The notes below the pieces were generated by a model. That model had not been told where the DNA came from, made no database searches, and saw only the letters and a program-made list of their open reading frames with translations. This document shows, in pieces, positions 15,827 through 45,054 of a stretch of DNA of 64,000 bases. Numbering within the stretch: the stretch's first letter is position 1; every line of letters begins with the position of its first letter. The DNA is from Candidatus Levyibacteriota bacterium (GTDB lineage: Bacteria; Patescibacteriota; Microgenomatia; Levybacterales; UBA12049), in contig DAIDHK010000003.1 in the NCBI GenBank assembly GCA_027459725.1, positions 64,931 to 128,930 of the forward strand. The letters run 5' to 3'. A program made the position numbers and the translations under genes.

Positions 15827-15849
15827 ACAAACAAGAAAAAGTAACGAAC

Positions 15850-16140
15850 ATGAAGATTTCAGAAATCCAAATTATACCTATAAAACCACAAAATGGTTTA
15901 GTAGGCTTTGCCAGCTTTGTTTTAGACAACAATATTTACCTAAGCTCCATTGGTATTATTACTCGGCCTGAAGGTGGTTATAGACTTCTTTATCCAACCA
16001 AAAAAGTCGGAATTAAAAATATTAACATCTATTATCCAATAAATAAGTCCTTTGCTACCTGTATTGAAAAGGGGGTCATCGATCAGTTTGAAAATGTAAT
16101 GAAAAAATATGATAGACACGATGAAACTGACATTAGATAG
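15850..16140 (+). CDS. spoVG: SpoVG-family nucleic-acid-binding protein
   Basis: 'MKISEIQIIPIKPQNGLVGFASFVLDNNIYLSSIGII...' matches the SpoVG N-terminal consensus; start placed at the internal Met. Confidence 0.55.
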   Translation: MKISEIQIIPIKPQNGLVGFASFVLDNNIYLSSIGIITRPEGGYRLLYPTKKVGIKNINIYYPINKSFATCIEKGVIDQFENVMKKYDRHDETDIR

Positions 16141-17245: not shown

Positions 17246-17420
17246 TATGTCAGAAGAACAATATTACTCTATTGAAGAAGTAGCAAAGATGCTAAAAGTA
17301 GCTTATTTAACTGTCTATCGATGGATACAAGCAAAGAGACTCATTGCTTTAAAAGCTGGTAAACAATATAGAGTTACAAAAAAAGATCTAGATGCTTTTC
17401 TCAATAGTTACAAGGGATAA
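17229..17420 (+). CDS. Excisionase-family/MerR-like HTH DNA-binding protein (putative Xis or recombination directionality factor)
   Basis: 'YSIEEVAKMLKVAYLTVYRWIQAKRLIALKAGKQYRV' resembles the excisionase-type HTH_17 domain. Confidence 0.6.
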   Translation: MINIISMSEEQYYSIEEVAKMLKVAYLTVYRWIQAKRLIALKAGKQYRVTKKDLDAFLNSYKG

Positions 17421-17426
17421 ATCGTT

Positions 17427-20537: not shown

Positions 20538-21997
20538 TGAAAACAATAATAATAGCAAGAGTATCAACAGAAGAGCAGAAAGAAGCGAACAATTCTCTAC
20601 CCGCTCAGATTGCACGACTCAAAAAGTACAGTCAAAATAAAGGCTTTGAAATAATCAAAGAGTTTAGCTTTGATGAAAGTGCATATAAGACCCAGCGTAA
20701 TGATTTTGATAGTATTCTAGACTATGTAATCGAACAAAAAGATAAACTAGCTGTTTGCTTTGATAAGGTAGATAGACTATCCCGCAATATTTTTGATAAA
20801 CGCGTATCTATGCTCTATGAGAAGGCACTAAAAGACGAGATAGAGCTTCATTTTGTATCAGACGGACAAGTAATAAATAGTCAGCTATCCGCAGTAGAAA
20901 AATTTAATTTTAGTATCAGTCTTGGGCTTGCTAAATACTACTCTGATGCTATAAGCGATAACGTCAAACGAGCACAAGAACAAATGCTTCGAATGGGAAC
21001 TTATCCAAGTAGACCTTCATTTGGTTACAAGCGAGTACCCATAGGAAAAGATAAGACAGAAATTGTAATTGATGAATTTGCTTCTCGTATCGTTCAAAAA
21101 GCCTACGAATGGTACGCAACTGGTAGCTTTTCAATGGATTTACTACGCAAGAAGTTAAAAACAGAATACGGTGTTAATTGGTCACATGGCTGGACTGATA
21201 AAATCCTCAAAGATACATTTTATTGTGGAGTAATGAAATGGAATAAGAAGTTATACCCACATAAATATCAGCCAATTATTACTAAATCCCTATTCGACCA
21301 AGTACAGCTAATAAAAGTTGGGTTTAATAAAAAAAGATTTAAGTTTGCAGGTTTACCTTATATCTACAGAGGCTTACTACGTTGTGGGCATTGTGGACTA
21401 TCTGTAACACCTGAAAAGCACAAAGGGCTAGTCTATTACCATTGCACGCAATATAACGGCAAACATGGGGCTGAATGGCTACGGGAAGAAGATATAACTA
21501 ACCAGATAGGAAATGTCTTTAAGAATATGCGTGTGCCTGAATGGGTTATAGAACAAATCGTTGACGCATTACGGACAACGCATGAAAGTAAAATTGATTT
21601 TCGAGAGAAGCAATACAGCAAACTATCAGAAGAACACGAAATGTATAGTAAAAGACTAGAAAAACTATACCTTGATCGATTAGACGGGCGTATTACTGAT
21701 AATGAGTATGACAAATTTTATCAGTCCTTCCGTGAACAGATAGCAGATATTGATACTCGACTAAGTATGCTACAAGAAGCAGATGATAACTACTACATCA
21801 CGGCTAAATACCTGTTAGAACTGGCAAATAAAGCGTATGAATTGTTTGTAAGTTCGGAAGTTGAAGAAAGAAGGCAATTAATCAAGCTTGTACTATCGAA
21901 CCTTAGAGTAGAAGGTAAAATAGTCCGATATGACGCCCAAAAACCTTTTGATACGATACTAAATTTCGCTGATCATCAACGTTGGCTCCGCGACTAG
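20534..21997 (+). CDS. Large serine recombinase (integrase type)
   Basis: 'IARVSTEEQ' catalytic region, zinc-ribbon 'RCGHCG...YYHCTQY', coiled-coil C-terminus. Start overlaps the RM gene stop (ATGA). The stop TAG at 21995-21997 lies inside tRNA-Asn. Confidence 0.9.
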   Translation: MMKTIIIARVSTEEQKEANNSLPAQIARLKKYSQNKGFEIIKEFSFDESAYKTQRNDFDSILDYVIEQKDKLAVCFDKVDRLSRNIFDKRVSMLYEKALKDEIELHFVSDGQVINSQLSAVEKFNFSISLGLAKYYSDAISDNVKRAQEQMLRMGTYPSRPSFGYKRVPIGKDKTEIVIDEFASRIVQKAYEWYATGSFSMDLLRKKLKTEYGVNWSHGWTDKILKDTFYCGVMKWNKKLYPHKYQPIITKSLFDQVQLIKVGFNKKRFKFAGLPYIYRGLLRCGHCGLSVTPEKHKGLVYYHCTQYNGKHGAEWLREEDITNQIGNVFKNMRVPEWVIEQIVDALRTTHESKIDFREKQYSKLSEEHEMYSKRLEKLYLDRLDGRITDNEYDKFYQSFREQIADIDTRLSMLQEADDNYYITAKYLLELANKAYELFVSSEVEERRQLIKLVLSNLRVEGKIVRYDAQKPFDTILNFADHQRWLRD

Positions 21998-22057
21998 GAT
22001 TCGGACCTAGAACCTTGAAGTTAACAGCTTCCTGCTCTACCGTTGAGCTATCGCGGA
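21983..22057 (-). tRNA. tRNA-Asn (anticodon GTT), with encoded CCA
   Basis: Hand-folded cloverleaf. Acceptor UCCGCGA/UCGCGGA is a perfect 7 bp. D-arm is GCUC-AACGGUA-GAGC. Anticodon loop is CUGUUAA. T-arm is CUAGG-UCCGAAU-CCUAG. Discriminator is G, followed by CCA. Confidence 0.85.
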
Positions 22058-23306: not shown

Positions 23307-24596
23307 TTGAGCAATAAATGGTATCGTGTTTTTATTGTCATCAATAACGTTGAGGTCTATACTGGATATAGCTACATTATTAAACTAATGAGTACTATTT
23401 TCAATATAATAAAAACAAAAAAGTTAATTTTTATAATCTTAGTAGTTTTTGTTATCTTTTTCTTACTGCGTTACTTTTTGTTGAGTCCAAACAGCACAGA
23501 CTTGGTATATAAAGTTACCCGGGAAAACTTGGTCGACAGCGTACAGGTAAGTGGAACATATGAAACGGCTGCTCAGACTTCAGTAACTTCTCCCACCAAT
23601 GGAATACTTGATAAAATTTATGTCAAAAATGGTGACATAGTTCAAAGGGGAGCTCCCTTATTTCATGTAGAGAGTAGCGCAACAGATGCTCAAAAAAAAT
23701 CAGCTTATGCTGACTATATGACAGCAAACAGCCAACTGCAGGCTGACAAATCTGCTCTTTATGCCTTACAATCTAGTATGTATTCAGCTTGGAAAACTTA
23801 CACCGATTTAGCTACAAATACTACTTATGAAAATGCAGACGGCAGTCCCAATACAACCAATCGGAGTTTACCGCAATTTACTACAGTACAGGATAATTGG
23901 TTAGCAGCTGAGGACAACTATAAGAATCAGCAGAATGTAATAGCTAAGGATCAGGCCGCTCTAGATTCAGCCCAACAGAATTATGCCCAAACACAAAGTG
24001 TTACGGTTAATGCACCTGTAACCGGTACGGTTGAAAATTTGTTGTCTACCAATGGTGATCAGGTAACTGCAGACAACACTTCTGTAGTTATTTCTGCAAA
24101 TACGGCTGGACAGTCTGCTGTGTCTGCTTCTGTAGCAAGTCCAATACTGGTGATTAGTAATATGGCCAATCCATATATTACTGCAGATATCAGCGAGGAC
24201 TACGCGGCTAGTATTGAAGCTGGACAGAGAGTCTCTATTGTTTTTGATGCTTTGAAAAATAAGACTTTTAGCGGTCATGTGGAAGCTGTGAATACAATCG
24301 GAACAACCGTCGGCGGAGTGGTGGATTATACAGCACGGATTTATGTAAATAATCTTTCCAGCAATATTAAACCGGGTATGACAGCTCTCATTACCATTGA
24401 AACTTTGAGAATAGATCATGTGTTAGATGTTCCCAATAGCGCCCTAATAAACAAAGGTAGTTTATATTTTGTAGAGTTAGCGCAAACACATAAATTAGTT
24501 CCGGTTGAAATAGGTACGAGGGGAGTATCCAAAACTGAAATAAAAAATGGTTTGCCTGTCAATACACTCATTCTTGCCAATCCAGGTGTAAATTAA
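23307..24596 (+). CDS. HlyD-family efflux periplasmic adaptor (MacA-like)
   Basis: N-terminal TM helix and coiled-coil region, then beta-barrel/lipoyl-like segments; paralog of 57943-59235. Confidence 0.75.
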   Translation: MSNKWYRVFIVINNVEVYTGYSYIIKLMSTIFNIIKTKKLIFIILVVFVIFFLLRYFLLSPNSTDLVYKVTRENLVDSVQVSGTYETAAQTSVTSPTNGILDKIYVKNGDIVQRGAPLFHVESSATDAQKKSAYADYMTANSQLQADKSALYALQSSMYSAWKTYTDLATNTTYENADGSPNTTNRSLPQFTTVQDNWLAAEDNYKNQQNVIAKDQAALDSAQQNYAQTQSVTVNAPVTGTVENLLSTNGDQVTADNTSVVISANTAGQSAVSASVASPILVISNMANPYITADISEDYAASIEAGQRVSIVFDALKNKTFSGHVEAVNTIGTTVGGVVDYTARIYVNNLSSNIKPGMTALITIETLRIDHVLDVPNSALINKGSLYFVELAQTHKLVPVEIGTRGVSKTEIKNGLPVNTLILANPGVN

Positions 24597-24597
24597 T

Positions 24598-25869
24598 ATG
24601 ATGTGGAAAGAAAATTCTCTCTATGTTGGATTTTTTCTGGCTCTTCGTGAGATAAAACGTACCAGTTTTTGGACGACTGCCTTAATTATCTTTGTCATGA
24701 TGATGACATTTTTTAACATGAACTTAGTTGGGGGTGTACTACTGGGGATTGCGCATGGAGTGATTGGATCATATAAACAGTATTATTCCGGTGACATCAT
24801 TATTACTCCAGCGACAGATAAAAGTAACATTGAGGACACCAATACGATCGTAGAAGTTATAAAAAGTATACCGACGTTTCAAAGCCTAACAGTACGTTAC
24901 ACGGCACCTGCTCTTGTTGAGTATGGTTATCAGAATAAGCTAAAACCAACTGATTTGTCAGAAAGTGCGGATGCTACTTTAACTGGTATTGATCCGCAAG
25001 CAGAAAATAATGTAACCAACTTATCCAAAGCGATTGTGGCAGGCTCATATCTGTCTCCTTCAGATGTTGATGAAGTTTTGGTTGGAGCTAGTTTAATAAA
25101 GAAGTATGCTTCCTTACGCGGATCAGTTACTACTTTGGGGGCCAAGATTCTTCGAACTCCTGATATTGGATCGAAAATCAGAATTACGGTTGATGGTGCT
25201 CAAAAAGAAGTGTTTATCAAAGGCATTGTTTCCACACAGGGTACAAATATTGATACGCGTATTTTTATGAATTCCACAGCCATGCGAGAGCTAATAGGTA
25301 ATACTAATCTTGATTCTGGGGAGATAGCAGTTAAGTTACTTCCCACTGCATCTGAGGAACAAGCAAAAGCATATTTAGAGAATAACCTTAAGAACAACAA
25401 AGATATTTTAATTCAGACTGCTAAAGATGCACTTCCAGGTGGAGTGAGCGATGTTATAAATACTTTCACTATTTTGGGAAATGTAGTGGGTGGCATTGCG
25501 CTCATCGTTGGTGCTGTCACTATCTTTATTGTTATTTTTGTTAATGCAGTGACGAGAAGAAAATACATTGGGATTCTCAAAGGTATCGGTATCTCGGCAC
25601 TGGCAATAGAATTTTCTTATATTCTGCAAGCGATATTTTATGCATTCTCAGGTATCGTAATTGCCAGTATCCTGATTCAATGGTTGTTTGTGCCATATTT
25701 TGCCCTACATCCAATTAGCTATCCTATTGCTAACGGTTCACTGGCTATTACTTCTTCCGATTTACTGTTTCATGGTGGGTTATTGCTAATAACGTCCTTG
25801 CTGTCTGGGTTTATCCCGGCTTGGTTGGTTACTAGGCAAAATACATTAGATGCTATATTGGGGAGATGA
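24598..25869 (+). CDS. ABC transporter permease, FtsX/MacB type
   Basis: N-terminal TM helix, large periplasmic domain and a C-terminal 3-TM FtsX domain. Confidence 0.75.
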   Translation: MMWKENSLYVGFFLALREIKRTSFWTTALIIFVMMMTFFNMNLVGGVLLGIAHGVIGSYKQYYSGDIIITPATDKSNIEDTNTIVEVIKSIPTFQSLTVRYTAPALVEYGYQNKLKPTDLSESADATLTGIDPQAENNVTNLSKAIVAGSYLSPSDVDEVLVGASLIKKYASLRGSVTTLGAKILRTPDIGSKIRITVDGAQKEVFIKGIVSTQGTNIDTRIFMNSTAMRELIGNTNLDSGEIAVKLLPTASEEQAKAYLENNLKNNKDILIQTAKDALPGGVSDVINTFTILGNVVGGIALIVGAVTIFIVIFVNAVTRRKYIGILKGIGISALAIEFSYILQAIFYAFSGIVIASILIQWLFVPYFALHPISYPIANGSLAITSSDLLFHGGLLLITSLLSGFIPAWLVTRQNTLDAILGR

Positions 25870-25870
25870 T

Positions 25871-26560
25871 ATGATTCACATTGAAAATTTAACTAAAAAA
25901 TTTTATATGGGAGATACAGAGCTCATTGCCCTTAAAGGTTTGAGTTTTGATGTTCCTACCGGACAATTTATATCTATAACCGGTCGTTCAGGTGCGGGTA
26001 AAAGTACCTTATTATATAATATGAGTCTACTGGACAAACCGACTTGTGGAAGTGTGACGATTGATGAACAAGTAGTTACCGAGATTGATGATCAAAAAAG
26101 GGTAGCTTATCGTTTGAACAATTTTGGTTTCATTTTTCAGGAATATGCTCTGATTCCTACCTTAACTTCAATTGAAAATGTGATGTTACCTCTTCTTATG
26201 CAGGGGGTGAAACGAAAAGAGCTGGAATTAGAAGCACTGCAAGCTTTGCAAAAAGTTGGTTTGATAGACAAATTAAAAAATCTCCCAAGTCAGCTTTCAG
26301 GTGGACAACAGCAAAGAGTTGCTATCGCCAGGGCGATTGCACACAATCCTAAAATAATCTTTGCCGACGAGCCGACGGCAAATCTGGATACCATTTCTTC
26401 ACAGGAAGTATTAGATATTTTTATAAAACTCAATAAAAACGGACAAACAATTATCATGGTTACTCACGAGCCTGAGTATGCGAGACTTGCTCATAGAACA
26501 ATTGAATTGTCTGATGGTCTGATTATATTAGACAAGTTAAACAGTGTTAAGAAGCGGTAA
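25871..26560 (+). CDS. ABC transporter ATP-binding protein (MacB/LolD-like)
   Basis: Walker A 'GRSGAGKST', signature 'LSGGQQQRVAIARA', Walker B 'IIFADEPT'. Start placed at the internal Met just after the permease stop. Confidence 0.9.
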   Translation: MIHIENLTKKFYMGDTELIALKGLSFDVPTGQFISITGRSGAGKSTLLYNMSLLDKPTCGSVTIDEQVVTEIDDQKRVAYRLNNFGFIFQEYALIPTLTSIENVMLPLLMQGVKRKELELEALQALQKVGLIDKLKNLPSQLSGGQQQRVAIARAIAHNPKIIFADEPTANLDTISSQEVLDIFIKLNKNGQTIIMVTHEPEYARLAHRTIELSDGLIILDKLNSVKKR

Positions 26561-33189: not shown

Positions 33190-33278
33190 ATTCATCTCAA
33201 AATTCAGTATTCTTTAAGGTGCTCACGCAGGGCCTCTCATGTAATTCTCATGTTGATCTTGTATAGTTAGCTCTGCCT

Positions 33279-33716
33279 ATGAAAAAGACAATCATTGCTC
33301 TTGTTGCGGTTTTAATTATTGGAGGATATGTACTATATCAAAATCAAGGTAGATTTTTTTTGATCCTGCTTGCGCAGCATAGATTATCTAATCCTTTTCA
33401 GGGTAATGGTAATACAACCCCGGTAGCTCATGTCAGTTATAAAGATGGAACTTATACCGGGATAGTAGCAGACGCATTTTATGGTAATGTACAGGTGCAA
33501 GCTACTATTTCAGGAAGTAAGATCACTGATGTACAATTTTTACAGTATCCGCATGATGCTTTAAGATCACAGGCAATCAACACACTTGCTATGCCTAATC
33601 TTAGACAGGAGGCTATTACAGCCCAGATCGCTCAGGTCGATGTCGTCTCAGGCGCAACTGATACAAGTAGTGCTTTTGTTCAATCTTTACAGTCAGCTCT
33701 TTCGCAAGCCAAATAA
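33279..33716 (+). CDS. FMN-binding domain protein, membrane-anchored and extracytosolic
   Basis: N-terminal TM helix; 'YKDGTYTGIVADAFYGNVQVQATISGSKITDVQFL' FMN_bind-like motif; paralog of 34513-35094. Confidence 0.6.
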   Translation: MKKTIIALVAVLIIGGYVLYQNQGRFFLILLAQHRLSNPFQGNGNTTPVAHVSYKDGTYTGIVADAFYGNVQVQATISGSKITDVQFLQYPHDALRSQAINTLAMPNLRQEAITAQIAQVDVVSGATDTSSAFVQSLQSALSQAK

Positions 33717-33721
33717 ACCCT

Positions 33722-34507
33722 ATGAAACACACAAAGCTAATTATGGGAATGCCTGTCACTGTGGAAATTATAGATACTAAAGTGAAGTATCATGTTTTTC
33801 AGGAAATATTCAACTATTTCGAATATATTGATAATACTTTCAGTACATATAAAGAGGATAGCGAGATAAGCAAGATTAATCAGGGAAGGTTAGATAAATC
33901 TCAATATAGTCGAGATATGCAAACAATCTTTGATTTAGCTGAAAGAACCAGGCAGGAAACTGAAGGATATTTTGATATTTACCATGAGGGGAAAATTGAT
34001 CCTTCGGGTATTGTTAAGGGGTGGGCGATTTATCAGGCAGCGCTCATTTTGAAACAAAAAGGATTTTCAGATTATTATGTAGAGGCAGGAGGTGACATTC
34101 AGGTGGCAGGCCTTAATAGTCATCACCATGCTTGGATAATAGGCATACGTAATCCTTTTAATCGGGAAGAAGTTATTAAAGTCGTATCCCTAAAGGGTAA
34201 AGGGATAGCGACATCCGGCACATATATTCGTGGTGCCCATATTTATAATCCTCAGGATAGGACTGACAGTTTATCAGACATTGTCAGCTTTACCGTTATT
34301 GGACCTAATGTTTATGAAGCAGACAGATTTGCTACGGCTGCTTTTGCTATGGGTAAAAAGGGGATAAATTTTATAGAAAATTTGTACGGATTTGAGGGTT
34401 ACATGATAGACAAAAGAGGAATCGCAACTATGACTAGTGGATTTAATACTTATGTAGTAATGGATATAGAAAGTTCCAGAGAAAAGAATATAAATTTTGT
34501 TAAATAA
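33722..34507 (+). CDS. apbE: FAD:protein FMN transferase (ApbE family)
   Basis: 'DPSGIVKGWAIYQAALILKQKGFSDYYVEAGGDIQVAG', 'GIATSGTYIRG'. Confidence 0.75.
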   Translation: MKHTKLIMGMPVTVEIIDTKVKYHVFQEIFNYFEYIDNTFSTYKEDSEISKINQGRLDKSQYSRDMQTIFDLAERTRQETEGYFDIYHEGKIDPSGIVKGWAIYQAALILKQKGFSDYYVEAGGDIQVAGLNSHHHAWIIGIRNPFNREEVIKVVSLKGKGIATSGTYIRGAHIYNPQDRTDSLSDIVSFTVIGPNVYEADRFATAAFAMGKKGINFIENLYGFEGYMIDKRGIATMTSGFNTYVVMDIESSREKNINFVK

Positions 34508-34512
34508 AATAT

Positions 34513-35094
34513 ATGGATACTAAAAAAATATTTCTTTCTACAATAGTTATAACAACTTTTCTAGGTTACTCATTCTATGCTAGGGTAAAAGGAATTAATC
34601 AGATGCCAGCACTTGCGCCAGTGACTAATAGTAATAGACAGGCGATGATTAACTCAGTTCCTATTACGCCAACCGTTACCTCTTTTCCGACCACTGCTCC
34701 AACCACATCAGTCAGTTCTAATACAGGTACTCCGACAGCAACTTCTCAGCCGGATACGCCAACACCTACTTCTACTTCTACTCCTACTCCTACTCCAAAA
34801 CCTAGTTCGCAATATAAAGATGGAACTTATACTGGGTCAGTAGAGGATGCATTTTATGGTAGTATTCAAGTACAAGCTACAATTTCGGGTGGGAAAATAA
34901 CTAATATTCAATTTTTGCAGGCACCCAATGATAATGGGACTTCAATTTATATTAACTCACAGGCAGATCCGATGTTGGCTCAAGAAGCAATTCAAGCACA
35001 AAATGCTAATGTAAATATTATTTCCGGGGCATCAGATTCCAGTCAAGCCTTCATGCAGTCTCTGCAGTCTGCTCTCGATCAAGCCAAAAGTTAA
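34513..35094 (+). CDS. FMN-binding domain protein with a Thr/Pro-rich linker, extracytosolic
   Basis: TM anchor, T/P/S linker, 'YKDGTYTGSVEDAFYGSIQVQATISGGKITNIQFL'. Confidence 0.6.
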   Translation: MDTKKIFLSTIVITTFLGYSFYARVKGINQMPALAPVTNSNRQAMINSVPITPTVTSFPTTAPTTSVSSNTGTPTATSQPDTPTPTSTSTPTPTPKPSSQYKDGTYTGSVEDAFYGSIQVQATISGGKITNIQFLQAPNDNGTSIYINSQADPMLAQEAIQAQNANVNIISGASDSSQAFMQSLQSALDQAKS

Positions 35095-35099
35095 ATTAT

Positions 35100-36614
35100 A
35101 TGCAAATCATTGATAACCTTTTAGACAAAATCACCATGTATCGTTTGGTGCTGTATTACCTAATCTTTCTTTTAGTAATAGCACTTTTTTATTCTTTCCT
35201 GGGGATATTACCTTTTTCGCCTGTATCTTTAATCGTTTCAGTCCTTTTTATTTTAGCCATATGTTGGTTAACTAACAAAATATTTGCTAAAACGTTCAGG
35301 GTACCCGCAAATTTTGAGTCTGTGTATATCTCAGCTCTAATTTTAGCATTGATTGTTTCACCGGCCAAAACATGGACAGACTATGCCTTTTTATTTTGGG
35401 CATCAGTACTTGCCATGGCCTCTAAATACATTCTGGCAATAAATAAAAAACATTTATTTAATCCTGTTGCGGTTGCTGTAGCGATTACGGCATTCGTGTC
35501 GGTTGGATCAGCCAGTTGGTGGGTAGGTACAGGCGCAATGCTGCCCTTTTTATTATTAGGTTTTTTGATTGTGCGAAAGATCCGACGTTTTGATTTGGTT
35601 TACTATTTTTTCTTAGCTGTTCTTCTGACTTTGTTTGGGATTACTATTTTACAAGGAGGTAATTTATTCAGTTCAGTAAAAGATGTCTTAGTATCTTCAT
35701 CACTTTTCTTTTTTGCTTTTGTCATGTTGACTGAACCCTTGACTACACCACCGACAAAAAAATTGCAAATTATATACGGGATTTTAGTAGGCATAATGTT
35801 TGTTCCGCAGTTTCATATTGGTACTTTTTATACAACTCCGGAAATAGCATTGGTGCTAGGAAACTTATATGTCTACGTGGTAAGCCCGAAGTTTAAGATT
35901 ATGACAACCCTAAAACAAAAACTGCAGGTTGCACCCGATATGATTGATTTTTTATTTGTCCCTCAGGGTAAATTTAATTTTGTTCCTGGACAATACATGG
36001 AATGGACAATTCCACATGCAAATCCTGATAGTAGAGGAAATAGAAGATATTTCACATTGGCATCTTCACCCACAGAAAGTGTGCAAAGACTTGGTATTAG
36101 ATTCTATCCTAATGGCAGTAGCTTAAAAAAAGCCATGTTAGCAATGAATTCCACAACACCTTTGATTGGTAATCAAATAAGTGGAGATTTTACACTTCCC
36201 GATGATCCAAATAAAAAACTAGTTTTTATGGCAGGAGGAATCGGTATTACGCCATTTCGAAGTATGCTTAAATATTTAGTCGACACAAATCAGAAAAGAC
36301 CTATCATTATGTTTTACAGTAATAAATTGTATAACGAAATTATTTATACGGATGTTTTTAATGATGCCTATTCTAAGTTAGGTATAAAAACTGTTTATAC
36401 TTTAACCGATAAAAATAAAATCCCGGCTAACTGGAGGGGAAGAGTGGGGCGTATTGACTCTAAAATGATAGCCCAGGAAGTACCTGATTATAAAGAAAGA
36501 ACATTTTATCTTTCAGGGTCTCATTCCATGGTAGTTGGGCATGAAGAAACGTTAAGAAGTATGGGTATACAGGAAAAACAGATTAAGAAAGATTTTTTCC
36601 CGGGTTTTGCTTAA
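35100..36614 (+). CDS. Membrane-bound oxidoreductase: N-terminal polytopic domain fused to a ferredoxin-NADP-reductase-like FAD/NAD(P)-binding domain
   Basis: ~6 N-terminal TM helices; FAD motif 'RRYFTLASSP'; NAD(P) motif 'MAGGIGITPFRSML'. Confidence 0.6.
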   Translation: MQIIDNLLDKITMYRLVLYYLIFLLVIALFYSFLGILPFSPVSLIVSVLFILAICWLTNKIFAKTFRVPANFESVYISALILALIVSPAKTWTDYAFLFWASVLAMASKYILAINKKHLFNPVAVAVAITAFVSVGSASWWVGTGAMLPFLLLGFLIVRKIRRFDLVYYFFLAVLLTLFGITILQGGNLFSSVKDVLVSSSLFFFAFVMLTEPLTTPPTKKLQIIYGILVGIMFVPQFHIGTFYTTPEIALVLGNLYVYVVSPKFKIMTTLKQKLQVAPDMIDFLFVPQGKFNFVPGQYMEWTIPHANPDSRGNRRYFTLASSPTESVQRLGIRFYPNGSSLKKAMLAMNSTTPLIGNQISGDFTLPDDPNKKLVFMAGGIGITPFRSMLKYLVDTNQKRPIIMFYSNKLYNEIIYTDVFNDAYSKLGIKTVYTLTDKNKIPANWRGRVGRIDSKMIAQEVPDYKERTFYLSGSHSMVVGHEETLRSMGIQEKQIKKDFFPGFA

Positions 36615-37584
36615 GCGGTAAGATTACTGAAACAGTTGTCTCTTTTTCTTCAACTGAAATTATATTAATTTTACCTTGATGCATATCTACTATTTGTTTA
36701 GCGATTGAAAGTCCTAATCCATATCCCTTTTCTGATCGGGAAGGATCAATACGATAAAAACGATCAAAAATCTTTTCCAGTTCTTTTTTAGGAATACCGA
36801 TACCGCTGTTGCTGATTATAACTACTGCTGACTTTTCATCATAATTTATCTTAACTTTAATATTGGCCTTTACCGGTGAATACTTGATGGCATTATCCAG
36901 TAAATTAGAAAAAAGCCTATTTAGTAAGTGACTATTACCCTGAATTATGATATTTTTTTGAGGAGGGGTAAGAGATATAATTTGATTCTTAGTGTCAGCT
37001 CTCTTTTGTAATAATGCAATCCGAGCACTTAGTAAATCTATCAAATCAATCTTTTCTTGTAAAGCAGATCGATGTTGGTCTTCTCTATTAATAAATAACA
37101 GGTTTTCTACTAATGCGATTAAATCATCGACCTCTTCCTTATTACTTTTTAAGGTTTTTTCATAATCAGACAAGGTTCTTTTTTTGCGTAAGGAAAGTTC
37201 TATATCTGCACTAATAATTGACAAAGGAGTACGTAGATCATGTGAAGCATCAGTTAGGAACTGTTTTTCTCTGGCATGAGCAGCTTGTATAGGCGCCAAT
37301 GTTCGACCGGTTAAGAACCAAGTTATAATAGGAATTGTAAATAATAACCCGAAATCAATTAACAAAATAATGTTTTTTAATTCATCCATGATAACATCCA
37401 GGGGAGGCTCTCGTTTCGGGACTTCCTGATCAATAGATTGTGAGTAATTATGATGTTTTATAAATGAACTGTCCCCAAAAAACTGGTTCATCCAAAAATA
37501 AATCCCACCAGTTAAACTCCAGAACAGGACTAGAAAAATGATAGAATATAACACACTTAGTTTAATTCTGGCTGTATGAAACAT
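36583..37584 (-). CDS. Two-component sensor histidine kinase
   Basis: Two TM helices, H-box 'DASHDLRTPL', ATPase 'NAIKYSP...GYGLGLSI'. Confidence 0.8.
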   Translation of the reverse strand: MFHTARIKLSVLYSIIFLVLFWSLTGGIYFWMNQFFGDSSFIKHHNYSQSIDQEVPKREPPLDVIMDELKNIILLIDFGLLFTIPIITWFLTGRTLAPIQAAHAREKQFLTDASHDLRTPLSIISADIELSLRKKRTLSDYEKTLKSNKEEVDDLIALVENLLFINREDQHRSALQEKIDLIDLLSARIALLQKRADTKNQIISLTPPQKNIIIQGNSHLLNRLFSNLLDNAIKYSPVKANIKVKINYDEKSAVVIISNSGIGIPKKELEKIFDRFYRIDPSRSEKGYGLGLSIAKQIVDMHQGKINIISVEEKETTVSVILPLKQNPGKNLS

Positions 37585-37594
37585 AGAAATATAT

Positions 37595-38275
37595 TTAGTT
37601 TGCTTTTGTTTTTAAAATATATCCTAACCCACGTACCGTATGAATAAGTTCATGTGAACTTTTGTCCGTTTTCAATTTCTGTCGTAGATATTTAATATAA
37701 GTTTCCACTATGTTGGATAATCCTTCATACTGATAATCCCAGACATGTTCTAATAGTCGCGTTTTAGACAAAACTGTATTAGGATTACGCATGAAATACT
37801 CCAATAAGGCATATTCTCTGGCAGTTAAATTAAGATTTCTATTATTTCTTTTGACTTCTTTTGTGGCAGGATTCAAGACTAAGTCTGCGAGTTGTAAAAT
37901 TACCGGTTCAGTTTTGTTTCCACGTCGTAGAAGAGCTCTAATACGGGCTGAAATCTCGGTAAAGGAGAACGGTTTTGTTACATAATCATCAGCACCAGCG
38001 TCCAACCCCTCTATTTTATCTTCTATAGCATCTCTGGCCGTAAGCATCAGGATGGGGGTATGTATATTTTTTTCACGTATCTTTTTACAAAGAGTAAAAC
38101 CATCCATTTTGGGCAACATGATATCCATAATAATCAAGTCATAGGAATTGATCATGACTTTTTCCCACCCCTCTTCGCCATCTTTGGCCAGATCTACGCT
38201 ATAGGAATCTTCCATCAGACCCTGGCGTAAAATATGAGCAATTTTTGTCTCATCTTCAATAATCAAAATCTGCAT
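37595..38275 (-). CDS. OmpR-family response regulator
   Basis: Receiver domain 'ILIIEDE...DLIIMDIMLP'; winged-helix 'LTAREYALLEYFM...VRGLGY'. Confidence 0.85.
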   Translation of the reverse strand: MQILIIEDETKIAHILRQGLMEDSYSVDLAKDGEEGWEKVMINSYDLIIMDIMLPKMDGFTLCKKIREKNIHTPILMLTARDAIEDKIEGLDAGADDYVTKPFSFTEISARIRALLRRGNKTEPVILQLADLVLNPATKEVKRNNRNLNLTAREYALLEYFMRNPNTVLSKTRLLEHVWDYQYEGLSNIVETYIKYLRQKLKTDKSSHELIHTVRGLGYILKTKAN

Positions 38276-38337
38276 ACTCTTATTATAAGCTAAACATTTA
38301 TTTTGTTAAAGCTAAATAAAATGATACAATTATTATT

Positions 38338-38892
38338 GTGAATAATAAACTGAAGATTTTAGGATTTGCAGGAAGTTTGCGCAAAGAGTCTTTAAACAAG
38401 AAACTCTTGTATGCAGCTCGGGAAATTTGTCCTGATGATGCTGAATTGGAAATTTTTGATATTAAAGATATACCTTTGTTTAACGCTGATGTAGAAGCAG
38501 AAGGGGACCCACAAAGTGTTAAAGATTTTAAAAATAAACTTCGACAGGCTGATGCTGTACTAATAGCTACTCCTGAATATAATCATTCTATTCCAGGGGT
38601 GCTTAAAAATGCCCTAGACTGGGCCAGTCGTCCACCTGAAAAAGTGTTAAATAAGAAGCCGGTGGCTATGATGGGTACATCCGACGGCATGACAGGGGCA
38701 ACCAGATCCCAACAACATATGATTCAAGTTTTAGCAGCTATGAATGCTTATACTTTATCTAAACCAGAAGTGATTGTTCCCAATGGAGATAAGAAGTTTG
38801 ATGAAGCTGGTAACTTAACTGATGATAAAACCAAATCAAAGATTATAACTTTGCTGACTGAATTAATTAACTGGACACAAAAGTTAAGATAG
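38338..38892 (+). CDS. NAD(P)H-dependent FMN reductase family oxidoreductase
   Basis: 'LKILGFAGSLRKESLNKKLL...ATPEYNHSIPGVLKNALDW' flavodoxin-like fold. Confidence 0.7.
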   Translation: MNNKLKILGFAGSLRKESLNKKLLYAAREICPDDAELEIFDIKDIPLFNADVEAEGDPQSVKDFKNKLRQADAVLIATPEYNHSIPGVLKNALDWASRPPEKVLNKKPVAMMGTSDGMTGATRSQQHMIQVLAAMNAYTLSKPEVIVPNGDKKFDEAGNLTDDKTKSKIITLLTELINWTQKLR

Positions 38893-42388: not shown

Positions 42389-43048
42389 ATGAAAGATAAA
42401 TACTTAATCATTGATTTTGATAGTACATTCATTCAAGTAGAAGCTCTAGATGAGTTAGCTAAGATTGTACTAAGTACTCATCCGTATAAAGAAGAACTAG
42501 TTAAAAAGATTGAATTAATTACTCAACTAGGAATGGAGGGAAAATTAAAATTTACTGAATCTTTAAAAATTCGTTTGAACTTATTTAAACCAACTGAAAA
42601 AGAAATAGATGAATTAATTATTTTCTTAAAAGGTAAAATTTCTAAATCTATTTTAAAAAATAAAGATTTTTTTGTGAGAAACAGTAAGAGAATATATATC
42701 GTTTCGGGAGGATTCTATGAATATATTTATCCTGTCGTTAAAAATTATTCTATCACTATGGATCATATTCTGGCTAATGAGTTTTTATTTGACAGAAATG
42801 GAAAATTTCAAGGGTATGATACTAACAATCCATTAAGTAAGACTGGAGGCAAGGTAAAAGCAGTCAAACAATTAAGATTACCCTCAGAAGTAATTGTACT
42901 GGGGGATGGATATACGGACTGGGAAATTAAGCATGCAGGATTAGCGGATAAGTTTTACGCTTTTATCGAGAATGTAAATAGAAAAAAAGTAACTCAAGTA
43001 GCAGATCAGGTTATAACTTCTTTTGACGAAATTATAGAGATACTATGA
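42389..43048 (+). CDS. serB: Phosphoserine phosphatase (HAD superfamily)
   Basis: HAD motif I 'IIDFDSTF', 'VSGGF', 'GDGYTD'. Confidence 0.75.
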   Translation: MKDKYLIIDFDSTFIQVEALDELAKIVLSTHPYKEELVKKIELITQLGMEGKLKFTESLKIRLNLFKPTEKEIDELIIFLKGKISKSILKNKDFFVRNSKRIYIVSGGFYEYIYPVVKNYSITMDHILANEFLFDRNGKFQGYDTNNPLSKTGGKVKAVKQLRLPSEVIVLGDGYTDWEIKHAGLADKFYAFIENVNRKKVTQVADQVITSFDEIIEIL

Positions 43049-43980
43049 AATCAAAATATAAAGTTTTACTGTTAGAAAATGTTCATCCGGTAGCTAAGGA
43101 ACTATTCGAAAGCTACAACTTTACTGTGGAATATTTAAAACATTCCTTGCCGGAAGAAGAGTTAGTACATAAGCTGGATGGTGTAAGCGTTTTAGGGATT
43201 CGTTCCAAAACGCAAATTACTTCCAAAGTTTTATCCAAAGCCAAAGATCTGCGTATGATTGGCGCCTATTGTATCGGAACTAATAATATTGATCTACAAA
43301 GTTGTGCATGTAAAAAAATTAATATACAAAACGCTCCTTATCAGTCAACTCGCAGTGTGGCTGAGTTAATTATCGGTGAAATTATTATGCTGGCAAGAGG
43401 AGTCTTTGATAAAAGTAATTCTTTGCATCATGGCAATTGGCAAAAAAGCGCTAATGGAAGCTTTGAAGTTCGTGGCAAGAAGTTAGGAATAATTGGTTAT
43501 GGACAGATAGGTACTCAATTAGGTGTGCTAGCTGAAGCATTAGGGATGGAAATTTATTATTATGATCTGGTTACGAGGTTAGCCTTTGGTAATGCAAAAG
43601 CATGTACCTCTCTTTATGAATTACTAAACTTGTCGGATGTTATCTCTGTACATGTTGATGGCCGTAAGGAAAATCATGATTTAATTTCCATACAGGAATT
43701 TTCTGAAATGAAAGAGGGAGTACTTTTCTTAAATGCCAGCAGGGGTTTTGTAGTAAATGTTTCGGCTTTAGTCATGGCTATTAAAAACGGTAAAGTCAGA
43801 GGAGCTGCGCTGGATGTATTTCCAAAAGAACCCCATGCCAATGGGGATAAGTTCAGTACACTTTTGCAGGGGTTACCAAATGTCATTTTAACTCCACATA
43901 TTGGAGCAGCGACGCAAGAAGCTCAAGAACAGATAGGACGTTTTGTTACACAAAAGGCAATTGAATATATGCAGCCATAA
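43045..43980 (+). CDS. serA: D-3-phosphoglycerate dehydrogenase (D-2-hydroxyacid dehydrogenase family)
   Basis: NAD-binding 'GKKLGIIGYGQIGTQLG'; catalytic 'LNASRG...LDVF...TPHIGAAT'; start overlaps the serB stop. Confidence 0.8.
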   Translation: MKSKYKVLLLENVHPVAKELFESYNFTVEYLKHSLPEEELVHKLDGVSVLGIRSKTQITSKVLSKAKDLRMIGAYCIGTNNIDLQSCACKKINIQNAPYQSTRSVAELIIGEIIMLARGVFDKSNSLHHGNWQKSANGSFEVRGKKLGIIGYGQIGTQLGVLAEALGMEIYYYDLVTRLAFGNAKACTSLYELLNLSDVISVHVDGRKENHDLISIQEFSEMKEGVLFLNASRGFVVNVSALVMAIKNGKVRGAALDVFPKEPHANGDKFSTLLQGLPNVILTPHIGAATQEAQEQIGRFVTQKAIEYMQP

Positions 43981-43983
43981 CTT

Positions 43984-45054
43984 ATGAAAAAAATATTTTT
44001 TACACCGGGTCCTTCACATCTTTATTCTACCCTCAGCAGACATATTAAAACTGCCTTAACAGAAGACGTGTTATCCATTTCTCATCGCGGAGAAAAATTT
44101 CATCTTCTGTTGGAGAATTTGCAAAATAATCTGAGAGTTTTATTAGACATCCCAAAAGATCATCAAATATTTTTTATCTCTTCTGGAACAGAAGCGATGG
44201 AGGTAACAATCAGAAACTGTGTTCAAAAAAATAGCTTCCATTTAATAAATGGGGCATTTTCCCAACGTTTTTTTGAAATCTCGCAGGCATTAAATAAAGA
44301 AGCTCAGGCAACAATGATTACAGAACTTAGTGAAGTTAAAGATTTAAAAGTTAATTCTCAAACAGAACTGATTTGTATAACTCAGAATGAAACAAGTACA
44401 GGATACCAAGTTCCAATAGAGTTTATTTATAAAATTAAAAACAAGTATCCAAATTGTTTACTGGCTCTTGATACTGTTTCGTCGATGCCTTATGTGGATT
44501 TGAATTATTCACTTACTGATGTGGTCTTCTTCTCAGTTCAAAAATGCTTTGGTTTACCATCCGGATTAGGAGTGATGATAGTGAGCCCGCAGGCGATAGA
44601 CAAGGCCAGATACTTATTAGAAAATAACTATGACGTAGGTGTCATTCATAATTTTACTAAACTATCAAAAGCGATGCAAAAACTTGAAACTGTCGAGACG
44701 CCAAATATTTTTGCTTTATATCTAATGGAGAAAGTTACGAATGATTTTTTACAGATAGGTATTAATAATTTAAGACAAGAAACAGAAGTGAAAGCGAAGT
44801 TATTATATGATTTTTTTGACAATCAGGCGGGTTTTGATATCTCTATTAAAGATAAAAGATACCAGTCGCAAACAGTGATTGTCATAAATGCGGAAACAAA
44901 TAAATTAAATGGTATTAAAGAGATAGAGTTAAGAAACAATATAGTTATTGGCAGAGGATATGGAATCTATAAAGATAAACAATTACGTGTTGCAAATTTT
45001 TTTACACATTCCATAGCAGATGTAGAGAGGCTATTAAGATTAATCAAAAGTTAA
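43984..45054 (+). CDS. serC: Phosphoserine aminotransferase (class V aminotransferase)
   Basis: 'FTPGPS' N-terminus, aminotransferase class V architecture; operon context serB-serA-serC. Confidence 0.65.
   Translation: MKKIFFTPGPSHLYSTLSRHIKTALTEDVLSISHRGEKFHLLLENLQNNLRVLLDIPKDHQIFFISSGTEAMEVTIRNCVQKNSFHLINGAFSQRFFEISQALNKEAQATMITELSEVKDLKVNSQTELICITQNETSTGYQVPIEFIYKIKNKYPNCLLALDTVSSMPYVDLNYSLTDVVFFSVQKCFGLPSGLGVMIVSPQAIDKARYLLENNYDVGVIHNFTKLSKAMQKLETVETPNIFALYLMEKVTNDFLQIGINNLRQETEVKAKLLYDFFDNQAGFDISIKDKRYQSQTVIVINAETNKLNGIKEIELRNNIVIGRGYGIYKDKQLRVANFFTHSIADVERLLRLIKS

Follow-up and report, generated by a model that had tools for sequence, protein, structure and literature searches.

Four co-oriented genes at positions 33279-36614 of the 64-kb stretch of DNA analysed here (64,000 nucleotides, referred to below as the window) probably encode a minimal module of 'NQR/RNF-like' type that exports electrons across the membrane. 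In the mechanism that we propose, NAD(P)H would be oxidised by the FAD bound in the FNR/NqrF-like, cytoplasmic half of a 504-aa fusion protein, and the electrons would cross the membrane via one or more flavin sites in the protein's NqrB/RnfD-like half, which has no covalent-FMN loop of its own. At the outer face, they would reach FMN bound as a phosphoester at T127 of FMN_bind-A and S174 of FMN_bind-B, where it would be installed from FAD by ApbE. The short-tether FMN_bind-A probably docks on the membrane domain, and the long-tether FMN_bind-B, which has a Pro/Thr/Ser-rich linker, probably hands electrons on to a soluble or mineral oxidant further out, our leading guess being metal ions such as Fe(III). 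An OmpR-type two-component system probably turns the operon on via a Pho-box-like direct repeat at the -35 position. An ApbE-dependent flavin system leading from NAD(P)H to membrane-anchored FMN-binding proteins had already been proposed in a sequence-only reading of this DNA, and it fits the flavin-based electron transfer across the membrane suggested in the literature for the same architecture (PMC8238504, PMC10979944/PMC11334425).

The seven genes of that reading were recovered at the positions given and with their domains through the ORF list and a Pfam search, all matches scoring above the gathering threshold (Table 1). Neighbours among the four + strand genes are separated by 5-nt gaps, and the 3' end of the fusion gene overlaps the convergent kinase gene by 32 nt.

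Table 1. Genes, domains, motifs and promoter elements of the cluster, in window positions.
Feature	Position	Strand	Details
Direct repeat TCTCATG-TAAT-TCTCAT	33235..33251	+	11-bp period; -35 position of operon promoter
-10-like hexamer TATAGT	33262..33267	+	10 nt 3' of repeat, 11 nt 5' of ATG; putative function
FMN_bind-A	33279-33716	+	145 aa
Flavinylation motif DVVSGAT in FMN_bind-A	33639..33659	+	predicted FMN acceptor T127
ApbE	33722-34507	+	261 aa
FMN_bind-B	34513-35094	+	193 aa
Variant flavinylation motif NIISGAS in FMN_bind-B	35014..35034	+	predicted acceptor S174
Fusion protein	35100-36614	+	504 aa
NqrB/RnfD-like membrane domain	35100..35894	+	residues 1-265; NQR2_RnfD_RnfE PF03116, E 2e-7
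GSASWW remnant of outward-facing flavinylated-Thr loop of RnfD/NqrB	35505..35522	+	
FNR/NqrF-like FAD- and NAD(P)H-binding module	35895..36614	+	residues 266-504; NAD_binding_1 PF00175, E 2.5e-13
Histidine kinase	36583-37584	-	HisKA + HATPase_c
OmpR-type response regulator	37595-38275	-	Response_reg + Trans_reg_C
Sigma-70-like promoter TTAACA-16-TATAAT of RR-HK operon	38282..38309	-	11/12 matches
FMN reductase	38338-38892	+	FMN_red PF03358, E 2e-45
Exact ApbE motif DGMTGAT	38683..38703	+	residues 116-122, in conserved S-x-G-x-x-G-x-x-R loop of FMN reductase

The two FMN_bind proteins flanking ApbE are indeed paralogs, with 64-67% identity over 92-99 residues and the common motif YKDGTYTG...QVQATISG.KIT..QFLQ. 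Both match PF04205 (E 7.6e-9 for FMN_bind-A and 1.6e-7 for FMN_bind-B), the former with an additional weak profile similarity to rnfG/PplA. According to an analysis of transmembrane (TM) segments and charges, FMN_bind-A has an N-terminal signal-anchor (MKK plus a TM helix) that is joined to the C-terminal FMN_bind domain by ~31 aa of linker; in FMN_bind-B, the linker between signal-anchor and FMN_bind domain is 78 aa long, with 56% P/T/S. By these features, they are classed as a short-tether NqrC/RnfG-like flavoprotein and its long-tether paralog. Such a short and long pair around ApbE also occurs in L083, L084, L118 and L119 and is thus a recurring four-gene subtype. In the family, the N-terminal flank of the MKK-TM signal-anchors has a charge at least as high as the C-terminal flank, with four exceptions: FMN_bind-B (+1 vs +2), its counterpart in L002 (+2 vs +3), and L018 and L037, both with doubtful start calls.

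The presence of DVVSGAT in FMN_bind-A and NIISGAS in FMN_bind-B excludes the absence of flavinylation motifs (as defined in PMC12052999 and PMC10722498) that the sequence-only reading had asked about. The form D-x-[IV]-[ST]-G-A-[TS] is found in 17 of 22 FMN_bind family members; FMN_bind-B has N in place of the leading D, and its orthologs show NI[IV]SGAT. Published D-to-A mutants had minor effects and a T-to-S change left less flavinylation, though not zero (PMC12052999). The missing Asp and the Ser acceptor may lower flavinylation of FMN_bind-B.

The same reading had recognised a polytopic membrane domain joined to an FNR module, a fusion that is confirmed here, and had missed the NqrB/RnfD identity of the membrane half, which emerges from PF03116 and from Foldseek: against the PDB, the best 15 matches of the AF2 model (pLDDT 76) are all RnfD or NqrB chains, with TM-scores of 0.55-0.71. 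In addition, hhalign relates the domain to E. coli RsxD (E 2.7e-5). About 10 TM segments are predicted, and the charge distribution together with the AF2 helices points to an N-in/C-in topology with the residual loop outward. At this loop, E. coli RsxD has ~95 aa, including DGISQAT187PLD, whereas the fusion protein has ~17 aa; judging from the alignment, the ~80-residue loop that carries covalent FMN in RnfD is lost. Of 136 diverse family members, 125 share an FNP-to-WW spacing of 17 aa, and a strict ApbE motif occurs in none of 150. The lack of heme ligands in the membrane domain, remarked on before, follows from its NqrB/RnfD-like nature, and its cofactors are assigned purely by analogy with NqrB. 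In favour of the proposed path, the NqrC-like flavin lies beside the empty flavin pocket of the NqrB-like partner in a published AlphaFold-multimer model of the Ktedonobacter complex (PMC10979944).

The other half of the protein, predicted to be cytoplasmic, matches the Fre, flavohemoprotein and NqrF models of NCBIfam over residues 278-500, and its PDB sequence and fold matches comprise NqrF, flavohemoglobin and the SpNOX dehydrogenase domain, with NqrF among the best. The FAD/NAD-binding residues expected from the first reading are present as R-Y-F-T (316-319), G-S-S (339-341), GGIGITP (379-385) and a C-terminal FFPGF, and they are retained in ~90% of 102 full-length family members.

As for regulation, the repeat at the operon promoter has a single exact match within the window, and exact copies in L083, L084 and L002 keep the same distance, 24-27 nt, to the start codon of the first FMN_bind gene. 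Copies with one mismatch, whose number is about that expected by chance, so that significance is limited to exact copies and promoter positions, were found 5' of the cluster-adjacent response regulator genes of L002 and L010. The layout of repeat, 10-11 nt spacer and TATAAT-like hexamer also recurs in L083, L084, L002 and L010. Four genomes keep TCTCAT-N5-TCTCAT at the operon promoter, and two have it at promoters of cluster-adjacent response regulators. We presume that the repeat, a Pho-box-like site, binds an OmpR/PhoB-family response regulator, and the adjacent member of this family (RppA 241 bits and CusR-type 231 bits in NCBIfam, slightly below the cutoffs) is the probable activator acting on it. 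The histidine kinase, a probable sensor controlling the operon, has two TM helices, a short outer loop that is variable and without conservation across relatives, and no HAMP domain; its nearest NCBIfam models are RppB and CusS/CopS-type, both below cutoff, and it adjoins the core in several relatives. Conservation of the direct-repeat site makes it probable that the two-component system does regulate the operon. The FMN reductase, NAD(P)H-dependent and of ChrR type, accompanies the cluster only in the close relatives L083 and L085 and is missing from most loci, which makes it a lineage-specific neighbour and no conserved partner of the system. The RR-HK operon and the FMN reductase gene diverge from a common 62-nt spacer, which contains the promoter of the former and no TCTCAT repeat.

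ApbE (PF02424, E 3e-42) belongs by sequence to the compact, leaderless type of FAD:protein FMN transferase. Its alignment to the E. coli and Salmonella ApbE structures begins at the first beta-strand; GIATSGTY, AHIYNP and EADRFAT are retained, whereas an internal segment of ~56 aa is missing, and the enzyme looks catalytically intact. The ORF allows no upstream extension, and a signal peptide or hydrophobic N-terminus is lacking in the cluster ApbE and in all 17 relatives whose core ApbE gene is intact. Hence, of the extracytosolic flavinylation initially put forward, the flavin system stands and the extracytosolic site is questionable. An ApbE without export signal is hard to reconcile with presumed substrates that face outward, so either the flavinylation site or the topology may differ from what is assumed.

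A tentative way out is that flavinylation is wholly cytoplasmic, the leaderless ApbE modifying the FMN_bind proteins prior to their export and, at T122, the FMN reductase too. With its covalent flavin, the reductase would in that case be a functional partner of the system in this lineage. Besides the 17 leaderless relatives and an ApbE that looks catalytically intact, the motif of the FMN reductase speaks for such a possible third, cytoplasmic substrate: it is one of just two strict ApbE-motif matches among all window ORFs. Among the best 120 FMN_red homologs, whose usual loop is [IT]GMLGTA, DG[MI]TGAT is limited to a small clade of three proteins (P0122, P0123, P0124), each encoded beside an NQR/RNF-like cluster, and the ApbE motif is absent from all 32 metagenomic relatives. 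On the other hand, the motif amounts to one evolutionary event in a gene missing from most family loci and without the repeat at its promoter, it lies in a loop that presumably touches the isoalloxazine and not the phosphate, and co-translational membrane insertion would leave the FMN_bind proteins little time for cytoplasmic modification. The literature can be read both ways, since Klebsiella fumarate reductase and the co-expression of truncated ApbE/NqrC are precedents for cytoplasmic ApbE activity (PMC12052999) and FMN_red proteins can serve as ApbE substrates, but the published flavinylated ones have the site in a C-terminal extension (PMC11334425).

The membrane domain invites two further readings. 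It shares its fold with NqrB and RnfD of ion-pumping complexes, N71, E73, S74, D94, E212 and E248 are invariant polar or acidic intramembrane residues of the family, and TEPLT aligns with RsxD TDPVT; acidic residues of NqrB are implicated in Na+ handling. An energy-conserving minimal pump, in which Na+ or H+ translocation is coupled to the export of electrons from NAD(P)H, would give quinone-free Patescibacteria a redox-driven membrane potential, but we consider it unlikely, as NqrD/E or RnfA/E, part of the coupling machinery, are found neither in the window nor in the relatives' clusters, and the literature takes the system for simple unidirectional transfer (PMC8238504). Rather improbable, too, is a membrane reductase passing electrons from NAD(P)H to quinone or another lipophilic acceptor, with the FMN_bind proteins as intermediate or regulatory carriers instead of an outward relay. 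Electrons would then end at a quinone-type site of the NqrB-like domain, as in Na+-NQR, whose NqrB holds riboflavin and ubiquinone sites; the retained fold, members in quinone-containing Chloroflexota (e.g., Dictyobacter, Ktedonospora) and a leaderless ApbE compatible with cytoplasm-facing flavoproteins would agree with it. However, the family is mostly found in Patescibacteria, which to our knowledge generally lack quinone biosynthesis, the signal-anchors and Pro/Thr/Ser-rich linkers of the FMN_bind proteins are typical of extracytoplasmic tethers, and the predicted topology puts the loop that faces the FMN pocket on the outer side.

The electron-export reading is also supported by synteny: FMN_bind, ApbE and the fusion gene form a core in ~21-24 of 37 loci, across many Patescibacteria classes and Chloroflexota. 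No conserved acceptor-specific gene was found among the relatives' neighbourhoods, which are heterogeneous; as hints at the acceptor, some of them have Nramp, P-type ATPase and VIT1 genes close to the core, and VIT1 has been reported in 6 clusters (PMC8238504). In L121, the fusion gene occurs without the remaining core genes. Variable surroundings and such solitary fusion genes could suggest chance neighbours, a reading effectively refuted by conserved synteny, with the core recurring in about two thirds of the loci across phyla, the 5-nt gaps and the position of all three relaxed ApbE-motif matches of the window inside the cluster.

Altogether, the cluster is a pared-down relative of NQR and RNF, respiratory complexes of bacteria, and, with its NqrB/RnfD-NqrF-like fusion, NqrC/RnfG-like FMN_bind proteins and ApbE, it fits the 'NQR/RNF-like system' as defined in the literature (Méheust 2021; Huang 2024), operationally a PF03116 + PF00175 fusion adjoining ApbE and FMN_bind (PMC8238504). 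These systems, which need no heme, have been described so far by bioinformatics only, mainly from Patescibacteria, Chloroflexota and Actinobacteria (Méheust 2021; Huang 2024), and we found no experimental study of any member in the literature searched. This type of cluster was already reported from computer analysis in 2021 and 2024, to which a further member and its details are added here.

The sequence-only reading of this cluster, which had proposed two FMN-binding proteins, an ApbE-type flavin transferase, a membrane-bound oxidoreductase, a convergent two-component system and an FMN reductase, was correct in essence, and its seven open reading frames are all present where it had placed them. 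The domains FMN_bind, ApbE and NAD_binding_1 (the last in the 504-aa protein), as well as HisKA/HATPase_c and Response_reg/Trans_reg_C in the two-component system and FMN_red in the reductase, were recovered above the Pfam gathering scores. An FAD-binding family that was also expected in the 504-aa protein, PF00970, was not reported at E 0.01, though it is present in some homologs. The residues needed to hold FAD and NAD are found in this protein (RYFT, GSS, GGIGITP and a C-terminal FFPGF). What had been overlooked is the NqrB/RnfD identity of its membrane half. The four genes on the + strand are separated by gaps of 5 nt each, and the kinase gene and the 3′ end of the fusion gene overlap by 32 nt. 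The window is AT-rich (~35% GC), and its closest relative among the numbered loci that carry homologous clusters is L083 (85% identity, GCA_027459745.1), which is collinear from Nudix to PurH. Going by the named relatives of the fusion protein (Levyibacteriota, Patescibacteria group), the source is most likely a Patescibacterium.

Features of the window, with their positions and strands
Feature	Position	Strand	Description
Unassigned ORF	9677-11152	+	491 aa
Putative mobile element	11859-22057		
Large serine recombinase	11859-13445	+	
Type IIG restriction-modification enzyme	17427-20537		1036 aa, Eco57I/MmeI-type
Large serine recombinase	20534-21997	+	
tRNA-Asn	21983-22057	-	
MacB-like transporter	23307-26560	+	HlyD-FtsX-ABC
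TCTCAT repeat	33235-33251	+	candidate operator
TATAGT	33262-33267		
FMN_bind-A	33279-33716	+	145 aa
ApbE	33722-34507	+	261 aa
FMN_bind-B	34513-35094	+	193 aa
Fusion protein	35100-36614	+	504 aa; membrane domain 1-265, FNR/NqrF-like module 266-504
Codons of N71, E73, S74	35310-35321	+	
Codon of D94	35379-35381	+	
Codon of E212	35733-35735	+	
Codon of E248	35841-35843	+	
Histidine kinase	36583-37584	-	
Response regulator	37595-38275	-	
FMN_red	38338-38892	+	184 aa
Putative serine-biosynthesis operon	42389-45054	+	
TCTCAT-N5-TCTCAT, one mismatch	59230-59246		
Second two-component system	59288-61039	-	
Unassigned ORF	62350-63912	-	520 aa

The two serine recombinase genes flank that of the restriction-modification enzyme, and there is an overlap between the tRNA-Asn gene and the 3′ end of the second one; a mobile element has probably integrated here at tRNA-Asn. 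The GC content rises up to 0.42 at 10-12 kb and is down to 0.26 where the window ends, at the 520-aa ORF; neither this ORF nor the 491-aa one has a Pfam match. Genes for a HAD phosphatase, a 2-hydroxyacid dehydrogenase and a class V aminotransferase occur in a row in what looks like a serine-biosynthesis operon (SerB/SerA/SerC-type), an annotation taken from the collinear L083 locus.

Pfam located PF03116 (NQR2_RnfD_RnfE) at residues 153-259 of the fusion protein, with 31.0 bits over a cutoff of 27.7, and PF00175 with 51.1 bits over a cutoff of 22, and NCBIfam gave weak rnfD/RsxD matches. At the sequence level, the membrane half showed a weak match to RnfD among solved structures (E 0.04-0.08). 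Because the FNR half dominated both the full-length fold search and the full-length PDB profile search, the membrane half was modelled and searched alone. An AlphaFold2 model of residues 1-268 (pLDDT 76) was compared with the PDB using Foldseek, and the best 15 matches were all RnfD or NqrB chains (E 1e-5 to 3e-3, TM-score 0.55-0.71), followed by urea and ammonia channels with E > 0.5. For the FNR half, matches include NqrF, flavohemoglobin, Fre and the dehydrogenase domain of SpNOX, and the Fre and flavohemoprotein models align across residues 278-500. Its AlphaFold2 model contains a six-strand FAD barrel with fold matches down to E 1e-16, and the protein carries both the R-x-[YF]-[ST] barrel motif (RYFT) and the GGxGxxP Rossmann motif (GGIGITP) typical of FNR-like enzymes. 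Since the membrane half is predicted to fold as RnfD/NqrB and the C-terminal half is an FNR module with a match to NqrF, the 504-aa protein joins NqrB/RnfD to NqrF in one chain, and NqrC/RnfG have their equivalents in the FMN_bind proteins. On the basis of sequence and predicted fold, the cluster belongs to the published class of the 'NQR/RNF-like system', whose defining feature is a fusion of PF03116 and PF00175 encoded within a flavinylation-associated cluster (Méheust et al., eLife 2021, PMC8238504), and represents its two-FMN_bind subtype. Our literature search found no experimental work on this class, for which a complex of Ktedonobacter racemifer was modelled by Huang et al. (2024, mSystems, PMC10979944/PMC11334425).

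The helices of the AlphaFold2 model and the distribution of charged loops indicate a membrane domain of ~10 transmembrane segments with both termini inside, which is consistent with the FNR module needing access to cytoplasmic NAD(P)H. The loops KKH (116-118), RKIRRFD (159-165), TKK (219-221) and KFK (264-266) are all predicted on one side, and the loop at 133-144 (GSASWW) is predicted to face outward, at the place where RnfD has its flavinylated loop. The stretch between FNPA and the next helix covers ~95 residues in E. coli RsxD, including DGISQAT187PLD, versus ~17 in the fusion. This shortening is common to the family, with an FNP-to-WW spacing of 17 residues in 125 of 136 diverse members, and the strict ApbE motif was found in 0 of 150 diverse members of the membrane-domain family. 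With the loop deleted, the membrane domain has therefore lost its own covalent flavin. As read from these alignments, the deletion is the structural reason for the loss of the NqrB/RnfD flavinylation site, in agreement with and extending the work of Huang et al. (PMC10979944/PMC11334425), who reported that the NQR/RNF-like system does not conserve this site and suggested that the FMN of the NqrC-like subunit visits the flavin pocket left vacant. A cryptic flavinylation site at S139 of GSASWW is unlikely, given the absence of the motif among the 150 members and a residue that varies at this position (I, G, N). Six polar or acidic residues of the membrane domain, N71, E73, S74, D94, E212 and E248, are invariant across the family and may bind flavin or coordinate ions.

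Homologs of the fusion protein number in the thousands, with a nearly constant length of ~504 aa, and those with a name come from Levyibacteriota, 'Patescibacteria group', Chloroflexota and Dormibacteraceae. A scan of species-representative genomes yielded 36 loci in which the fusion is matched wholly or for the most part, from many Patescibacteria classes, Ktedonobacteria and Anaerolineae, and an exhaustive search with the membrane domain as the query gave 400 representative clusters at E <= 1e-30, the best 150 of which include 102 fusions of at least 450 aa. The FMN_bind + ApbE + fusion core was found in about two thirds of 37 loci by tblastn and ORF clustering. No acceptor gene proved to be conserved across the loci; each of the metal transporter and thiol-redox genes is confined to between one and three of them. 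Among the former, Nramp is near the core in L001, L011 and L030, P-type ATPases in L001 and L118, and VIT1 in L001. The latter occur at single loci, as DsbB directly upstream of apbE (L001), VKOR (L118), thioredoxin (L119) and DsbD-thioredoxin (L121). DsbB and VKOR normally depend on quinones, which are believed to be absent from Patescibacteria. Directly beside the cores of L003, L007, L009, L012 and L032 there are MacB-type ABC sets accompanied by a small DUF5666-like protein; in the window, the MacB-like transporter is found ~7 kb upstream of the cluster. Altogether, these neighbours and the six clusters previously linked to VIT1 (Méheust 2021, PMC8238504) lean weakly towards metal reduction.

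The proposed paralogy of the two FMN_bind proteins holds, with 64-67% identity across 92-99 residues and the common block YKDGTYTG...QVQATISG.KIT..QFLQ, and so does the expectation that they would carry a flavinylation motif. FMN_bind-A has DVVSGAT (T127), a strict match to D-x-x-[ST]-G-A-[ST], and FMN_bind-B the variant NIISGAS (S174) with a D to N change, both being predicted acceptors; the motif is matched in 17 of 22 family members. The FMN_bind proteins begin with MKK, followed by a transmembrane helix from residue 4, and their linkers are rich in Pro, Thr and Ser. The charge of the N-terminal flank usually equals or exceeds that of the C-terminal one, with the exceptions of FMN_bind-B (+1 vs +2), its L002 counterpart (+2 vs +3) and L018 and L037, whose start calls are doubtful. 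By these sequence features, they look like signal-anchored, outward-facing proteins. The gene order FMN_bind, ApbE, FMN_bind, fusion is found again in L083, L084, L118 and L119, and L002 has its two FMN_bind genes side by side. Each pair combines a short form (143-149 aa, linker of ~31 aa) and a long form (186-229 aa) with a Pro/Thr/Ser-rich linker of 73-81 aa where measurable. The short protein might dock on the membrane domain, and the long copy would carry electrons farther outward. In L084, an 81%-identical relative, a second FMN_bind (155 aa, DIVSGAS) and fusion (506 aa) pair is encoded at 2199-4188 (-), 1,979 nt from the main cluster. This pair has no ApbE of its own, and one ApbE may therefore serve two modules.

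The ApbE of the cluster shows a peculiar start. PF02424 is recognised with 145 bits, and alignment to the E. coli and Salmonella ApbE structures shows that the catalytic motifs GIATSGTY, AHIYNP and EADRFAT are retained and that ~56 internal residues are absent. The ORF begins MKHTKLIMGMPVTVEI, an upstream extension is impossible, and residue 15 already aligns with residue 32 of the mature E. coli protein. Neither a signal peptide nor a lipobox was detected in the window ApbE, and a hydrophobic leader is missing from each of the 17 relatives whose core ApbE gene is intact, those of cultured Ktedonobacteria included; they all start alike (MK.T..IMGMP[IV]TVEI). In this respect they differ from the FMN_bind proteins, with their signal-anchored and outward-facing look. 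ApbEs are typically secreted lipoproteins, and cytoplasmic ones exist (PMC12052999). The accessible portions of the published descriptions of the NQR/RNF-like system contain no mention of a signal-less ApbE.

The FMN reductase, in turn, has an exact D-x-x-[ST]-G-A-[ST] motif (DGMTGAT) at residues 116-122. Across all window ORFs (24,313 aa in all frames), only FMN_bind-A and FMN_red contain the strict motif, and the relaxed one adds only FMN_bind-B. Among the 120 best FMN_red homologs the usual loop is [IT]GMLGTA, and DG[MI]TGAT is seen in just three proteins, that of the window and the relatives with 85% and 75% identity, each encoded beside an NQR/RNF-like cluster; a 65% relative on a short contig has NGITGAT. 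Neither the motif nor an ApbE neighbour was found for metagenomic FMN_red relatives (0 of 32), none of which exceeds 54% identity, and these loci serve as a negative control only. The DGMTGAT loop is the result of one evolutionary event, which counts against the idea of flavinylation. Moreover, this loop presumably contacts the isoalloxazine and not the phosphate of FMN. Engineered ApbE motifs placed beside the FMN phosphate are efficiently used, and FMN_red (PF03358) proteins can be ApbE substrates, with published sites in a C-terminal extension (PMC11334425). The window protein contains PF03358 and has apbE ~4 kb away; its motif is internal, in 184 aa without a C-terminal extension. On the strength of the motif, flavinylation of FMN_red at DGMTGAT is conceivable and, in our opinion, rather improbable. 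As a conserved core component FMN_red is ruled out, since it adjoins the core only in the close relatives L083 and L085, the latter most likely a continuation of the L084 cluster from the same sample, besides an unrelated and motif-less copy in L016. A wider proposal, which we consider unlikely, would place flavinylation in the cytoplasm in this lineage: the FMN_bind proteins would receive their FMN from the leaderless ApbE ahead of export, and the ChrR-type FMN_red would be covalently flavinylated by it at T122 of a remodelled active-site loop. If true, engineered 'flavin-fixing' would have an equivalent in nature, cytoplasmic ApbE substrates would gain a new class, and these small genomes could do without an FAD export system.

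The kinase (HisKA + HATPase_c) and the regulator (receiver + winged helix) form an OmpR/PhoB-type two-component system according to Pfam, and no NCBIfam equivalog cutoff was reached for either of them, the nearest being RppA/RppB and CusR/CusS-type. Five clustered loci have a kinase/regulator pair no more than 3 kb away from the core; widening the distance to 7 kb brings in further loci, and the arrangement differs from one to another. Stronger evidence than this adjacency for a link with the operon comes from its promoter. The 89-nt spacer upstream of FMN_bind-A has diverged among the three closest genomes except for TCTCATG-xAAT-TCTCAT, followed by 10 nt and TATAGT. This is a direct repeat of TCTCAT with an 11-bp period, located at -35, an arrangement that is classic for activator sites of the OmpR/PhoB type. 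It has a single exact match in the window, an exact copy at the equivalent place in the more distant L002, and one-mismatch versions, with equal spacing to a TATAAT box, upstream of the cluster-adjacent regulator genes of L002 and L010. Five exact matches were found in 1.1 Mb of loci, with fewer than one expected by chance on a rough estimate; one-mismatch matches are near chance, and therefore only position and exactness carry weight. The repeat is a candidate operator that may tie the two-component system to the operon. The regulator of the window has a near-consensus sigma-70 promoter of its own without the repeat, which is also absent from the FMN_red promoter, and an operator common to the operon promoter and the divergent spacer between regulator and FMN_red was discarded in view of the lack of shared 7-9-mers. 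The sensor loop of the kinase, short and unconserved, was dismissed as a clue to the ligand, and neither an FMN nor any other riboswitch was found upstream of the operon, Rfam giving only a tRNA in the window. A second OmpR-type two-component paralog is encoded towards the end of the window (regulator 47% and kinase 34% identical to the cluster pair), with a one-mismatch repeat beside it that is probably due to chance.

The general view is that respiratory chains are absent from Patescibacteria and from related bacteria with small genomes. For them, a flavin-only path of two components that leads the electrons of NAD(P)H outside could count among the few means of disposing of reducing equivalents, of reducing metals for uptake or of redox interaction with hosts. 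The locus offers a compact experimental version of a predicted class, built from four genes plus a likely regulator and candidate operator. Specialists may find interest in its leaderless ApbE, the candidate operator, the short and long FMN_bind pair and the ApbE motif of FMN_red, and a family-wide leaderless ApbE together with a motif-bearing cytoplasmic FMN reductase could change the view of ApbE biology.

Among known systems, the NOX/MsrQ-like FNR fusions such as SpNOX share a polytopic membrane domain followed by a C-terminal FNR-type dehydrogenase, with NAD(P)H inside and the acceptor outside, but the membrane domain of the window is flavin-based and NqrB-like instead of a bis-heme ferric-reductase domain. 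A heme-based, NOX-like membrane domain is ruled out by this RnfD/NqrB fold and the lack of a PF01794 match, and the absence of heme ligands pointed out in the sequence-only reading is explained by the NqrB/RnfD type of the membrane half. The extracellular electron transfer of Listeria (FmnB, PplA, Ndh2, EetA/B) likewise relies on ApbE-type flavinylation of membrane-tethered FMN_bind proteins that carry NAD(P)H electrons outward. However, the window FMN_bind proteins reach just 18-19 bits with the PplA model NF041941 (cutoff 325), there is no Ndh2/quinone step in the window and no Ndh2 among annotated neighbours, and ApbE is leaderless, whereas FmnB is described as a secreted lipoprotein supplied by an FAD exporter (PMC9973259). 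Precedents exist for a signal-less ApbE in the cytoplasm, in the flavinylation of the fumarate reductase of Klebsiella pneumoniae (PMC12052999), and for PF03358 proteins as ApbE substrates, in the flavinylated FMN_red proteins of Lactococcus (PMC11334425), although the candidate site of the window lies in an internal conserved loop (116-122) and not in a C-terminal extension.

For RNF (RnfA-G; RsxA-G in E. coli), RnfD is the nearest fold to the membrane domain (9eri_D, 8rbq_D), TEPLT of the fusion aligns with TDPVT of RsxD and the FMN_bind proteins are weakly RnfG-like, but the ~80-residue RnfD loop with DGISQAT187 is deleted, and RnfA/B/C/E homologs are absent from the 64-kb window. A canonical RNF/NQR operon is ruled out, as tblastn with E. 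coli RsxA, B, C, E and G found nothing below E 0.5 in the 64-kb window; among the neighbours in 27 loci, no NqrD/E, RnfA/E or Fe-S carrier families recur. With Na+-NQR (NqrA-F) the cluster shares an NqrB homolog, an NqrC homolog in the form of FMN_bind with its SGAT site, a homolog of the FAD/NADH portion of NqrF, and an FMN put in by ApbE. It differs in the lack of NqrA, NqrD/E and any Fe-S cluster, including the 2Fe-2S domain of NqrF, which is missing because the FNR matches of the fusion start at the FAD barrel; in the fusion of NqrB and NqrF, with no covalent FMN site in the NqrB-like part; and in an electron flow presumed to be one-way outward versus semicircular to quinone. The best counterpart is the NQR/RNF-like system, with which the window shares an N-terminal PF03116 and a C-terminal PF00175 in one protein, NqrC/RnfG-like FMN_bind and apbE genes adjoining the fusion (here two and one, directly upstream), the loss of the NqrB/RnfD flavinylation site and a taxonomic range across the candidate phyla radiation and Chloroflexota. 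To this plan, the window adds FMN_bind genes with a short and a long tether on either side of apbE, a two-component system with a conserved promoter repeat, and an FMN reductase with an ApbE motif as a neighbour.
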